64,000 nt of DNA from an uncultured Chloroflexia bacterium. GTDB taxonomy: Bacteria; Chloroflexota; Limnocylindria; QHBO01. The stretch lies in assembly GCA_963825525.1 (NCBI GenBank), contig CAWGTN010000003.1:144297-208296 (forward strand). Direction: 5' to 3'. This document shows positions 48,601-52,495 of this stretch, piece after piece; position 1 is the stretch's first letter; each line of letters starts with the position of its first letter. Below the pieces are notes generated by a model. The model did no database searches. It had not been told where the DNA came from and saw only the letters and a program-made list of their open reading frames with translations. The position numbers and the translations under genes are program-made.

Positions 48601-48975
48601 ATGGATATGAAGCTCGAACTCGTCTTCGTGCCGGTGACCGACGTCGACCGGGCCAAGTCGTTCTATGTCGACCAGGTTGGCTTCAACGCCGATCACGACC
48701 AGCGCGTGAGCCCCGAGCTGCGCTTCGTGCAGCTCACACCGCCTGGATCGTCCTGCTCCATCGCGTTCGGTGAGGGGATCACCCCGATGGAGCCCGGTTC
48801 GCAGAAGGGCATCCAACTCGTGGTGGAGGACGTCCGCGCGTTCCGGGATCTGCTCGTTGCCAACGGCGTCGAGGCGACCGAGGTGGAGGATCTGGCCTGG
48901 GGCTCGTTCACGTTCTTCCAGGACCCCGATGGCAACGCCTGGGCCGTCCAGCAGCTTCCCGATCGGTCAGCCTAG
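48601..48975 (+). CDS. VOC/glyoxalase family protein
   Basis: PVTDVDRAKSFY, QLTPPGS, FQDPDGNAWAVQ. Confidence 0.9.
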   Translation: MDMKLELVFVPVTDVDRAKSFYVDQVGFNADHDQRVSPELRFVQLTPPGSSCSIAFGEGITPMEPGSQKGIQLVVEDVRAFRDLLVANGVEATEVEDLAWGSFTFFQDPDGNAWAVQQLPDRSA

Positions 48976-49750
48976 CCAGGCAAGGGTCACCAGCTCGGCA
49001 TAGAGCGCCTCCACGTCCACCGCCACGCCCTGCCGGCCGAACCACTCGCCGACGTTGGCGACGTCGCGGTGCAGGAGCTCGAACGCATCGGTGTTGGTGG
49101 TGAACTCCACTGCCTGCGGCAGGTCGATCACCACCAGCCGCGCCTTCCACCACAGCAGGTTGTAGGCGGACAGATCGGCGTGGACGAGCCCGGCCGACGT
49201 GAGCGCACGCAGCGCCTGACCCATCTGCTCCCAGGCCGATGCCAGCTCATCGGCCGACAATCGCGCCTGCGCCAGCCTTGGCGCGGCCCCTTCCTCCTCG
49301 TCGCCGATGAACTCCATCATCAGCCCGTCCTCGGACCGCTCGACCGGGTAGGGGACCGGCGATGCCGGCCTCCCACGCTCGACGCAGCATCTCCCACTCC
49401 TGCATCGGCCACAGCTGGGCGGCCAATTCGTGGCCGTATCGGCTGCGGTTGCCGGCCTCGATCGCGCGCCGATCGCGCGTGCGGAGGTTCCAGCCTGCCT
49501 TGTAGATCGCGTCTCCGCGGTAGAGGGTCGAGTTCGAGAATCCCTTCTCGCGCAGCTCGTCCTTGCCGGGGTAGCGGGGTCGATATCGCTTGTGGGCAAT
49601 GAGGCGAGGGCCGCTCGTCGCGAATCGGCGCTCGAGCAGGAAGATCTCGGCCTCTTTGCCTGATTTCAAGGTGCCGCGCGGGTGGTCCTCGTAGGGCTCA
49701 CCATCGGGCCAGACCATGGACGGCCCGCGCAGCGGTTTCGTGAAGGACAC
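48967..49750 (-). CDS. RIO1-family atypical kinase (frameshift near 49360)
   Basis: LKSGKEA, VPYP, MEFIG, LVHADLSAYNLL, IDLPQAV, RDVANV. Confidence 0.85.
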
Positions 49751-49935
49751 GAAAAAGCGCTCCCAGAATCATGGGTTGGAACGGAAATGTCGTCCCGACC
49801 GGTCTGGAGCGCTGCGATGTGCCTAGGTGCGCTCCGCGCCGTCGGGAGGAACGGCAATCGTGGTCTGCACAGCGTCCTCCTCGAGTGGTTGGCCTGATCG
49901 GGGGCGATCATGCGCCGATGCGACCAGTGGCGCAA
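49751..49935 (-). promoter_or_regulatory. RIO1 5' leader: promoter plus putative translational attenuator
   Basis: TTGCGC(49935-49930)-N17-CATGAT(49912-49907); alternative stems 49829-49847:49793-49812 versus 49803-49813:49756-49767, the latter covering SD GGGAG. Confidence 0.65.
49823..49870 (-). CDS. Putative leader peptide MQTTIAVPPDGAERT
   Basis: AGGAGG (49881-49876) 5 nt before GTG; TAG lies in the loop of the first stem. Confidence 0.6.
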   Translation of the reverse strand: MQTTIAVPPDGAERT

Positions 49936-50009
49936 GCCCTACAGGCGAGCCGCGGCACTCATACTCCATGTCATACTGACGCAGACCAAAAGAGCGAGCG
50001 AACTCCACC

Positions 50010-50267
50010 ATGACCTTTTCGCGGGATCGGCTGACTCGGGCGACCATCACGCTGCCGGACGACCTCGTCAGGGAGGTCGACAAGATCGCCGGGCGGCGCG
50101 GACGGAGCCGATATATCGCCGAAGCCGTCGTCCAACGCATTCGGCGCGACCAGATCGCGGCCGCCCTCGCCGAGACCGAGGGTGCCATGAAAGATCGGCC
50201 GGGCGCGATGACCCCCGAGGAGACACTGCACTGGATCGGGGAGCTGCGGTCGGAGGTCACGAGCTGA
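50010..50267 (+). CDS. CopG/RHH-family antitoxin (VapB-like)
   Basis: RATITLPDDLVREVD...RSRYIAEAV pattern, directly upstream of PIN gene; TCATACT direct repeat at 49959 and 49971. Confidence 0.8.
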   Translation: MTFSRDRLTRATITLPDDLVREVDKIAGRRGRSRYIAEAVVQRIRRDQIAAALAETEGAMKDRPGAMTPEETLHWIGELRSEVTS

Positions 50268-50269
50268 CG

Positions 50270-50653
50270 ATGCGCTACCTGCTCGACACCAGCGTGATCC
50301 TCGACCACGTCCATGGTCACGGACCGGCAACCTGGCTCCTCGGCCGCCTTCTCGACACCCAGGGTGAGCTCCTGACGTGCGACGTCGTCATCGGCGAGGC
50401 GCTCGTCAACGGTCCTGACGAACAACGAGAAGCCATATCGGTCGTGCTCAACTCCCTCGAGTACCTTCCCACCAGCCGGCGCGCCGCAACCGACGCCGCG
50501 GCCTTCCGCACGGATCGGCGACGGGGTGGGGAATCGCTGGGACTCGCCGACGCGCTGCTCGCGGCCGTCGCGAAGGGCGCCCGCGCCACGCTCGTCACCC
50601 GGGGCCGACCCGTCCTGGGATCCATCCCCGGACTACGAATCCTCACGTACTGA
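50270..50653 (+). CDS. vapC: PIN-domain toxin (VapC)
   Basis: YLLDTSVI, VIGEAL, LADALLAA, LVTR. Confidence 0.85.
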   Translation: MRYLLDTSVILDHVHGHGPATWLLGRLLDTQGELLTCDVVIGEALVNGPDEQREAISVVLNSLEYLPTSRRAATDAAAFRTDRRRGGESLGLADALLAAVAKGARATLVTRGRPVLGSIPGLRILTY

Positions 50654-51448: not shown

Positions 51449-52495
51449 TCAGCGGATCGGTGTGGTAGCCCTCGCCGTTCGCTCACCGCCTGCTGTCGTT
51501 TCCTCGGCGGTGGCCACGTCCGGCGCGAGCGCTGCGAGCCGCGCACGCAGCCACAGCAGCGCCACGTCCTTCGCCTTCGCCTCCAGCATCACGTCGAGCG
51601 GCCCTCGGGCCGACCGGATCAGCTGGAGGAAGTCCCACGGCGAGACGAGATCGGCATGAGGACCGAGCGCCGGCGGGACGACCACGTCCCGGCGGCGGCG
51701 AGTGCCGGCGATCGGGCGCTTGACCACGTCCACTGAGACACGCGGGCTCGACAGGTGGACCTTTGGTCGCACCCCCTCCGGCCAGGTCGCCATGGCCGCG
51801 GCCAGCGCATCGGCATCGGCGAGGCCCGGCGCCGGGAGAATCCGCGCATGATGCCAGTCGTACACGACCCGGACTCCGGTGCGCCGATGGAGCTCCAGCA
51901 CGTCACCGGCATGGAACAGGCGCTCGTCGTTCTCGAGGCCGAGCCGACCGCGGGCCGAATCGGAGAGGCGCTCCCATGCCGCCGCCCAGCGGTCCAGGGC
52001 AGAGGCGCGGTCGCCGTATAGCCCGCCGACATGCACCACGACCGTCGACTCAGGGCCCATGCCCATGGCATCGAACAGCGCGCTATGCGACTCGATCTCT
52101 GCCAGGGAGCGGTCGCGGAGTCCCGGTTCGTCGCCGTTGATGACCGTGTACTGGCCGGGATGCGTCGAGAGCCGCAGGCCCTGCGCGCGCGCTCGTGCAC
52201 CAAGCCCGGCCAGCTCATCGGCGCAGTCCTCGATCTGCCCTCGGTAGTCGAACTGGACCAGATCTGGGTGGGTGCCGTACGGGATGACATTGCTGGACAT
52301 CCGGTACATCCGAACGCCGATCCACTCGAGGTGATCCCACACGCCGTGGAGCACCTCGATCGAGTGCCGAAGATGCGGTCCGCTCTGCCAGCGCCGCAAG
52401 TCGGCCTCCTTGATCGGCTCGAACCCGCCGAGCACCTTGACGGCAAATCCAAGCCGATACGGGACAGCCGGTGGAGGTTCGGGCAGGAGAGGCAT
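51449..52495 (-). CDS. uvsE: UV DNA damage repair endonuclease
   Basis: YRMSS, RLSTHPGQY, VVHVGGLYG, LENDE, YDWHH, KVHLSS, HAD, MLEAKAKD. Confidence 0.92.
   Translation of the reverse strand: MPLLPEPPPAVPYRLGFAVKVLGGFEPIKEADLRRWQSGPHLRHSIEVLHGVWDHLEWIGVRMYRMSSNVIPYGTHPDLVQFDYRGQIEDCADELAGLGARARAQGLRLSTHPGQYTVINGDEPGLRDRSLAEIESHSALFDAMGMGPESTVVVHVGGLYGDRASALDRWAAAWERLSDSARGRLGLENDERLFHAGDVLELHRRTGVRVVYDWHHARILPAPGLADADALAAAMATWPEGVRPKVHLSSPRVSVDVVKRPIAGTRRRRDVVVPPALGPHADLVSPWDFLQLIRSARGPLDVMLEAKAKDVALLWLRARLAALAPDVATAEETTAGGERTARATTPIR

Follow-up and report, generated by a model that had tools for sequence, protein, structure and literature searches.

A conserved, probably translated leader precedes a RIO-type kinase gene

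We analysed a 64,000-nucleotide stretch of DNA (the window) from an uncultured Chloroflexia bacterium of the Limnocylindria (GenBank assembly GCA_963825525.1, contig CAWGTN010000003.1, positions 144,297 to 208,296), in which the gene of a RIO-type protein kinase (the RIO gene) lies behind a structured leader. On the minus strand, the region 49935-49748 contains, in this order, a promoter, an AGGAGG Shine-Dalgarno sequence (SD), a short upstream open reading frame (uORF), three mutually exclusive pairing segments, a run of five U (U5) and the GTG start codon of the RIO gene. This layout is a real and conserved feature of the locus. Our leading reading of it, which we put forward tentatively, is that the leader acts as a ribosome-dependent (leader-ORF) attenuator of the kinase gene. 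An earlier note, made from the letters of the DNA alone, had proposed a control of this kind, and its individual claims are taken up below together with the results that bear on them.

Orthologous leaders were collected from related genomes. The closest RIO genes on named contigs belong to Chloroflexota metagenome-assembled genomes, mostly labelled Candidatus Limnocylindria. With the 130 N-terminal residues of the RIO protein as query, matches were obtained in 25 of 61 related genomes, own genome included, many of the 61 being incomplete. By group, the query matched in 18/36 genomes of the genus, in 6/11 of a second family and in 0/11 of a third family. In total 58 leaders (19 + 39) were taken; removal of 6 duplicates and of one leader at a contig end (L035) left 51 distinct leaders, of which 40 belong to the subgroup of the window (subgroup A) and 11 to a second subgroup (subgroup B). 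Leaders L013 (genome G034) and L016 (G006) come from genomes flagged as unpublished, and no conclusion rests on either.

All 51 leaders show GGAGG followed 5-11 nt on by a start codon, a uORF of 13-18 codons and a stop codon. The start codon is GTG in 31 leaders, ATG in 19 and TTG in 1, and the uORF closes with TGA (31 leaders), TAA (13) or TAG (7). In the window, the AGGAGG and the 15-codon uORF that the earlier note had placed at 49870-49823 hold in position and length; its start codon has to be corrected from ATG to GTG. The promoter that had been claimed, TTGCGC-N17-CATGAT, lies where it had been placed, and the same promoter form, TTGnnn-N16-18-nAYnRT, is found in 47/51 leaders. The -10 consensus GCATGAT/GCATAGT is likewise kept in 47/51 leaders, 25-42 nt 5' of the GGAGG of the uORF. 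In our alignment of the leaders (A1), GGAGG is invariant, and the GCGCUCC and GGYCGGG of segment 2 are invariant or nearly so. The coordinates of all elements in the window are collected in Table 1. Most leaders of subgroup A also have a further hairpin (GCCUC...GAGGC), placed after the uORF stop and ahead of segment 2 (columns 70-150 of alignment A1); the window leader lacks it, the gap between the stop and segment 2 being 9 nt only (49814-49822).

Table 1. Elements of the RIO leader and the RIO gene in the window.
Feature	Position	Strand	Remark
-35-like hexamer TTGCGC	49935-49930	-	followed by a 17-nt spacer to the -10-like hexamer
-10-like hexamer CATGAT	49912-49907	-	same form in 47/51 leaders
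uORF Shine-Dalgarno AGGAGG	49881-49876	-	5 nt ahead of the uORF GTG
uORF, 15 codons, GTG to TAG	49870-49823	-	peptide V/M-QTTIAVPPDGAERT
Pro-Pro codons CCU CCC (uORF codons 8-9)	49849-49844	-	includes the anti-SD-like CCUCC
Segment 1, UCCCGAC GG CGC GGAGCGC	49847-49829	-	within uORF codons 8-15; partner is segment 2
Segment 2, AGCGCUCC AGA CC GGUCGGGA	49813-49793	-	partner common to segments 1 and 3
Inner hairpin 3' arm, CGUUCC A ACC	49783-49774	-	pairs with the GGUCGGGACG half of segment 2 (minimum free energy fold)
Segment 3, UCUGGGAGCGCU	49767-49756	-	contains the RIO Shine-Dalgarno GGGAG, 49764-49760
U5 run	49756-49752	-	directly 3' of the 2:3 helix
RIO-type (RIO1-like / RioB) kinase gene	48967-49750	-	GTG start at 49750; frame interrupted near 49357 in the assembly

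The leader is a single-copy, RIO-specific element and not a repeated regulon element. We built a covariance model (R1) on the window's subgroup. In the own genome R1 gave one strong match (E 4e-23), and two more at E 0.4-0.6 that were taken as noise. Across the class it found one match each in 14/151 genomes (own included), all in family f1, one of them in an unpublished genome (G125); by family, 13/50 genomes of f1 matched and 0/100 genomes of families f2-f5. These counts are lower bounds because R1 misses the leaders of subgroup B. A search of the own genome with a motif pattern returned 4 further matches, and no comparable SD-led uORF was found in the region upstream of hflX.

A second Limnocylindria family (L022-L027, L140, L148, L153) has a different uORF ahead of its RIO genes, which begins MS.R.ARDAAGLR... 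Within this uORF, the stretch CCGGCCUCC, read A-G-L-R, is complementary to the SD GGAGGCCGG, and there is no Pro-Pro. The leaders of this family were not found by R1.

Two evenly matched pairings compete for segment 2

The pairing of segments 1 and 2 (hereafter 1:2) that the earlier note had read from the letters is borne out by folding energies. In the window, the 1:2 duplex has an energy of -30.4 kcal/mol against a mean of -17.2 kcal/mol for shuffled sequences, and 0/200 shuffles equal it. Across the 51 leaders, the median is -28.3 kcal/mol against -18.7 kcal/mol with shuffled segment 1, with z < -2 in 43/51. The alternative pairing of segments 2 and 3 (2:3) is found in the minimum free energy (MFE) structure of the window leader (49740-49900; -61.3 kcal/mol, z = -2.60, 2/200 shuffles equal), where the 2:3 helix encloses the inner hairpin. 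The claimed burial of the RIO SD is also seen there: the GGGAG of the RIO-type kinase gene is part of the helix. The outer stem of this terminator-like hairpin has 11 bp and is completed by the inner hairpin and then by U5, and the RIO SD that it contains lies 8-9 nt ahead of the start codon. Compared with dinucleotide shuffles, the hairpin running from segment 2 to segment 3 has a median z of -3.78, with z < -2 in 42/51 leaders. The median energy of the 2:3 duplex over the 51 leaders is -28.2 kcal/mol. Given these duplex medians, -28.3 and -28.2 kcal/mol, 1:2 and 2:3 are evenly matched for segment 2.

The consensus calculated by RNAalifold from 38 leaders of the window's subgroup is the 1:2 pairing. 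In all, 96.8% of the cells are paired in 1:2 and 94.0% in 2:3, shares that drop to 28-60% once the 3' partner is shifted by 1-3 columns. One variable position in the first part of segment 1 (1a) fits pairing, as it appears as G:U in 18 cases, as G:C in 15 and as A:U in 5, and never as A:C. The letters of the helices differ between the two subgroups. In subgroup A, segments 1/2/3 read GGAGCGC/GCGCUCC/GGAGCGC; in subgroup B, they read CCUCG (1b), CGAGG/UCCGAG (2a) and CUCGGA (3b), yet the three-way competition is retained. The z-scores of 1:2 are weaker in subgroup B, about -1 to -3.

In the free full-length leader, the RIO SD has a median unpaired probability of 0.002, and it exceeds 0.5 in 0/50 leaders. 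Among folds in which the RIO SD and start codon are free, the best one costs a median of +15.4 kcal/mol (range 8-20). The 2:3 fold, with the RIO SD paired and so expensive to free, is thus the ground state of the leader. The uORF's own SD is also paired, in 51/51 full-length MFEs. Its masking by the uORF body is predicted in 45/51 leaders against 64% of shuffled bodies. Self-masking of the uORF SD, being weakly above composition, was dropped as a basis of the mechanism and is kept as a candidate feature only.

The uORF carries signs of translation

Several features of the leaders are signs that the uORF is translated: the invariant SD, the start base that may be G, A or T, the use of three stop codons, and the frames of leaders in which the reading has been disturbed. 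In leaders L019 and L032, the frame shifts ahead of CCUCCC and is restored behind it, and each ends on the same TGA. In L005 (= L038), the promoter-proximal half of the leader has been replaced, about 150-250 nt upstream of the RIO start. There, a new SD (GAAGGAGG) and an ATG open a 40-codon frame that joins the conserved 3' part of the uORF without a shift and uses the old stop; in this leader the parser took an internal ATG, and the actual frame opens 40 codons upstream.

Proline is found at uORF codon 9 in 46/51 leaders. The Pro-Pro pair, which the earlier note had singled out as a motif sensitive to elongation factor P (EF-P), is present in 40/51 leaders, as PPG in 24, PPD in 14 and PPR in 2. 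The other 11 leaders read HPG, LPG, LPA (two), PLD, SPD, SPG (three), PSG or none of these. Wherever the pair occurs it is written CCU-CCC (40/40), and the third base of CCU pairs with the A that ends segment 2, as U:A in 34/38. The letters of the Pro-Pro pair are therefore constrained at the RNA level too, which qualifies the EF-P claim. By comparison, CCU makes up 6.4% of the Pro codons in 31 likely genes of the window, and CCU-CCC 2 of their 70 Pro-Pro pairs. The stretch CCUCC is moreover complementary to the uORF's own SD. In the part of a study on which we draw here (PMC8129111), CCC and CCU are given as the slowest codons for diproline synthesis, avoided in first position. From these sequence patterns, the choice of CCU-CCC seems to be explained in part by RNA pairing, and a programmed pause would fit as well.

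The leader belongs to a bacterial RIO-type kinase gene

In the assembly, the RIO frame lies in two pieces, an N-terminal frame at 49247-49750 and a second frame at 48967-49599, which together make a RIO domain protein. The C-terminal ORF of the window matches the Pfam family RIO1 (PF01163) at 1.7e-27 (96.7 bits, gathering cut-off 22), and an intact orthologue of 259 aa (L029) matches it at 1.1e-33 (116.9 bits). Against NCBIfam NF041645 (PA4780 family RIO1-like protein kinase, equivalog), this orthologue scores 124.4 bits, under the 350-bit cut-off, which makes it a related non-member. Its best solved relatives are Rio1 chains, e.g. 1zp9 at 3.4e-19. Across 10 homologues, G-K-E-[AS]-E, V-H-x-D-L-S-x-x-N and I-D-x-x-Q vary little or not at all, and they align with Rio1 of the A. 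fulgidus type; these motifs represent the nucleotide-binding loop and the catalytic/metal-binding residues.

The interruption of the frame is most likely an assembly error, as judged from the comparison of sequences. Two additions stand out when the RIO gene of the window is aligned with three close relatives: a single G at about 49357 and, in frame, a GAA at 49291-49293. One base at 49356-49360 is missing from the contigs of all three covering runs (X2, X3 and X5); that of X2 is otherwise identical to the window over 218 bases. The RIO orthologues of relatives have open frames of 250-324 codons. The hflX gene of the own genome is likewise split over two frames, at profile position 223 (G000:C2:294046-295093, loci L163/L164), which again points to indel errors of one base in this assembly of 4 contigs. 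Because the covering contigs lack the extra base, the frames of relatives are open and hflX is also split, we take the RIO gene to be intact in the organism. In a close relative (L031, 93% identical), two single-base insertions in the RIO gene end the frame at 166 codons; these are probably assembly indels.

Archaeal and eukaryotic Rio1 and Rio2 have a role in maturing the small ribosomal subunit. Eubacterial RIO kinases have been named 'RioB', a eubacteria-only group to which the excerpt concerned assigns no function (PMC3358306), and PA4780 appears in the relevant excerpt only as a predicted kinase (PMC11197903).

A proposed ribosome-position model of the leader

The polarity, the kinetic pathway and the signal of the switch, which we infer from the layout of the leader, would be as follows. 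The promoter would drive a leader of about 150 nt that contains the short translated uORF. In the 2:3 fold, the RIO SD would be buried and transcription may terminate, and the gene would be off. During transcription, segment 1 would capture segment 2 first. A ribosome that runs to the uORF stop would cover segment 1, segment 2 would then go to segment 3, and the gene would be off. Where the leading ribosome is missing, or is stopped no further than codons 8-9, segment 2 would stay with the GGAG... stretch that makes up the 3' half of segment 1; the RIO SD and start codon would remain accessible, and the gene would be on. Counted from the first base of the P-site codon, this GGAG half would begin 12 nt on, which puts it at the rim of the ribosome, whose standard footprint we took as -12 to +14 around the P site. 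Slow peptide-bond formation at Pro-Pro-Gly/Asp would be expected to raise RIO synthesis, as would a failure to initiate on the uORF. Candidate causes of slowing are a shortage of EF-P or of Pro-tRNA and drugs acting at the peptidyl-transferase centre or in the tunnel, the link to antibiotics being purely conjectural.

We simulated the nascent RNA by cutting it after segment 2, and measured the upstream pairing of the future partner of the RIO SD. Without a ribosome, the median paired probability was 0.99 in subgroup A and 0.57 in subgroup B. A ribosome on the Pro codons gave 0.92 (A) and 0.75-0.90 (B), and one at the stop codon 0.68-0.82 (A) and 0-0.36 (B). Within the limits of this simulation, the values agree in direction with the proposed polarity. 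The drop at the stop position in subgroup B arises partly from the terminating ribosome itself covering that stretch.

Several results weigh against the attenuator as we propose it. The difference between the Pro position and the stop position is modest in subgroup A, and in subgroup B segment 1 lies wholly inside the footprint of a ribosome paused on the Pro codons. At equilibrium, the unpaired probability of the RIO SD passed 0.5 in 0/50 leaders with the ribosome at the start codon, in 1/50 with it on the Pro codons and in 2/50 with it at the stop codon. Because equilibrium folding keeps the RIO SD paired at every ribosome position, the on state must be kinetic, and because the SD is freed at no position tried, equilibrium models give no polarity. 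The Pro-Pro pair itself is missing in 11/51 leaders. There is no excess of third-position entropy in codons 2-7 of the uORF (4.86/6.14/5.58 at positions 1/2/3), this test for peptide selection being uninformative in GC-rich genomes.

Covariation does not speak for the helices either. The earlier note had looked to the upstream regions of RIO homologues for conserved uORFs and covarying stems; the uORF and the pairings are kept in the orthologues, so that the loss of conservation which the note had named as refuting its reading did not appear, and covariation does not rise above controls. Within the window's subgroup, 1:2 shows no compensatory changes, 2:3 has only 2 pairs with double changes, not above shuffle controls, and the covariation of the helix formed by the SD and CCUCC is not above controls. 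Compensatory changes are absent from 1:2 and at shuffle level in 2:3 because the helices are nearly invariant.

The transcriptional part of the model meets two further objections. A strict consensus scan of 49000-50600, which allowed terminator loops of 3-8 only, returned 0 promoters and 0 terminators; its rules leave no room for a -10 hexamer of this form or for a long stem with interruptions. The U run that had been noted ahead of the GTG is present in the window and is not kept across the leader family: a T run of at least 3 occurs in 26/40 leaders of subgroup A (plus L005 and L064) versus 1/11 of subgroup B. The feature universal to the family is sequestration of the SD, not termination.

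Alternative explanations

The same layout may be read with the opposite polarity. The Pro-Pro pause would then hold the ribosome over segment 1. Whenever the uORF is translated, with or without a pause, segment 2 would pass to segment 3 and the gene would be off; RIO would be made only from transcripts whose uORF was not translated in time, and the leader would sense a shortage of initiation-competent ribosomes, not stalling. This fits the footprint of a ribosome at codon 9, which takes in almost the whole of segment 1 (in subgroup B the whole of it), with a median unpaired value of 0.00 for the RIO SD. It also fits the ribosome-free state, in which 1:2 is the consensus of the alignment and upstream pairing keeps the partner of the RIO SD occupied (0.99 in subgroup A), and the pairing of the uORF SD in every full-length MFE, which would make initiation on the uORF conditional. 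Yet this self-masking is weakly above composition, the nascent-RNA simulation keeps segment 2 occupied while a ribosome sits on the Pro codons, and known ribosome-sensing leaders mostly turn on upon stalling, as do mgtP (PMC5299641) and hflXr (PMC6310831) in the portions of these papers that describe them. Mainly because of this habit of known leaders, we consider the opposite polarity doubtful and rate it about half as likely as an attenuator that is on upon stalling.

If, instead, there were no switch at all, the structured 5' untranslated region and the uORF would simply keep RIO expression constitutively low, and 1:2 would have no regulatory role. The off fold is indeed 8-20 kcal/mol more stable than any SD-free fold, and it persists at equilibrium for every ribosome position. 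But segment 1, a conserved SD-led uORF and a uORF stop at a fixed position would all be superfluous in a damper, and the 1:2 complementarity is far above shuffles, as strong as 2:3 and retained with different sequences in two subgroups. We therefore regard a mere damper as unlikely. Quite unlikely, in our view, is a leader that serves mainly as a binding site for a protein or small ligand, with the uORF as a read-out platform. Such a site could mediate feedback by RIO itself or by a ribosomal component, for instance through recognition of an rRNA-like element such as the CCUCC anti-SD mimic. The idea draws on the very high nucleotide conservation without a codon-position pattern, on the CCUCC that is invariant and always written CCU-CCC, on the single copy per genome, always at RIO, and on Rio1 of archaea and eukaryotes, which acts at the 3' end of the small-subunit rRNA according to the excerpt cited (PMC11045238). 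It is countered by the absence of a conserved junction resembling a ligand pocket and of any Rfam riboswitch match, by the compensated frameshifts, which argue for selection on translation itself, and by the fact that the SDs, the start and stop codons and the three pairing segments explain all conserved letters. Finally, the small ORF might encode a functional micropeptide co-expressed with RIO. Its strong SD and conserved start would suit this, as would the proline at codon 9 or, in the Actinomycetota uORFs described below, within codons 7-11. We find it scarcely credible, since the peptides differ widely between the subgroups, show no codon-position signature of protein-level selection and have most residues altered in the frame-shifted variants.

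Comparison with known leaders

Attenuation by a leader ORF is a textbook class of mechanism. Attenuators of the erm/cat type combine a small ORF and alternative RNA structures with drug-specific arrest motifs, and the trp leader-peptide attenuator belongs to the same classical class of transcription attenuation as those of his and pyrBI. The published systems closest to the RIO leader are compared with it here from excerpts of the papers named. In mgtP, of the Salmonella mgtCBR operon, a short leader ORF of 18 codons likewise has consecutive Pro codons, and EF-P-dependent stalling picks between alternative stem-loops and sets downstream expression (PMC5299641). As far as that excerpt goes, mgtP differs in having three Pro codons, where the RIO leader has two or, in the 11 leaders listed above, no pair. 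It differs also in acting on transcription elongation of a proteobacterial operon for Mg2+ transport and virulence, whereas the RIO leader sequesters the SD of a kinase gene. The two leaders show no sequence relationship, and EF-P dependence of the RIO leader is only a candidate.

The rli80/hflXr leader of Listeria also joins a small ORF, of 14 codons in hflXr, to alternative folds ahead of a ribosome-related gene, and there, as proposed for RIO, the fold depends on where along the leader the ribosome stands; unlike the RIO leaders, which have no general motif of this kind, it is described in the excerpt as responding to macrolides and lincosamides through a drug-specific arrest motif, RLR (PMC6310831). 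In the RIO leader, in contrast to hflXr and the erm/cat leaders, three segments compete, segment 2 is shared, and the SD of the uORF can be masked. With the his (PMC8129111) and pyrBI (PMC5021804) attenuators, as the excerpts present them, the RIO leader shares hairpins that exclude one another, a leader ORF that is probably translated, a U run behind a GC-rich stem (in the window's subgroup) and, as proposed, a decisive role for the timing between polymerase and ribosome. It differs from his, pyrBI and trp in lacking a run of codons for one amino acid beyond Pro-Pro, in a terminator-like helix that also carries the SD, in the U run that is missing in much of the family, and in a gene behind it that is not biosynthetic.

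The earlier note had known of no description of such a leader, and our searches agree. Rfam gave nothing in the window leader, the 5 weak matches in 49000-50600 being all elsewhere and below gathering, and nothing relevant at 15 related loci. The literature search, which did not cover subscription journals and bioRxiv supplements, found no account of leader or uORF control of bacterial RIO kinases among the papers listed, as judged by title and abstract, those on RIO kinases and uORFs being eukaryotic. As far as we have found, the leader family, its RIO target, the evenly matched three-segment design and the conserved proline at codon 9 have not been described. Because no Rfam family matches, the leader would be a new family for RNA catalogues.

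RIO leaders in Actinomycetota

Putatively translated leaders ahead of RIO-type genes appear from sequence comparison to reach far beyond the sequence family of the window, spanning two bacterial phyla. A profile of the 10 RIO homologues retrieved 80 loci; rows labelled Chloroflexota or Limnocylindria were dropped and 53 loci labelled Actinomycetota were kept. An SD-led uORF (8-45 codons, at most 330 nt upstream of RIO) is present at 47 of these 53 loci, versus 12/53 on the reverse complement. Proline occurs within codons 7-11 in 34 of the 47 uORFs. Their SDs are self-masked in 37/47 cases versus 64% in shuffles, weakly above composition.

Fourteen leaders of the Nocardioides type, from Nocardioides and relatives (L130-L157), have a uORF of 27-40 codons that begins M-(S/T)-(I/M)-T-V-(L/A)-G-L-P-(A/S)-D. 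This uORF overlaps the RIO SD (GGAGCAC) and ATG in another frame, and the SD GAGAGGAG of these leaders is complementary to CUCCUCUC inside the uORF. The positional entropies of the uORFs in the Nocardioides group (7.16/4.02/4.81 at positions 1/2/3) show no third-position excess. Related RIO leaders occur in cultured Nocardioides, Microbacterium, Enemella and Lentzea, carriers that make the question experimentally approachable.

These leaders allow a wider reading, which we consider rather unlikely as a whole. RIO would be coupled to a self-masked mini-ORF across Chloroflexota and Actinomycetota, a read-out of ribosome competence would set RIO, and RioB would be a factor of 30S maturation or quality control. 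The initiation and elongation of small subunits would be gauged on an SD-led test message whose output sets RIO synthesis. The anti-SD-like CCUCC in this message would mimic the 3' end of 16S rRNA, the conserved proline at codon 9 would be a built-in pause, and RioB would stand under homeostatic feedback from ribosome competence. Apart from this extension, the most likely meaning of the leader is that RIO kinase output is tied to how well ribosomes work. A conserved ribosome-reading switch ahead of RIO would be the first regulatory clue that bacterial RIO enzymes serve translation.

Gene neighbourhood

The genes flanking the RIO gene and its leader lie on the other strand, and RIO therefore stands alone behind its leader. 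Convergent with RIO is a gene of the glyoxalase family (48601-48975, plus strand), which overlaps the 3' end of RIO by about 9 bases. Divergent from the leader, a ribbon-helix-helix gene (50010-50267, plus strand) overlaps a PIN-domain gene (50264-50653, plus strand), a pair that looks like a toxin-antitoxin system of the vapBC type. Further upstream of RIO lies a gene for a UvdE UV-endonuclease (51449-52495, minus strand).

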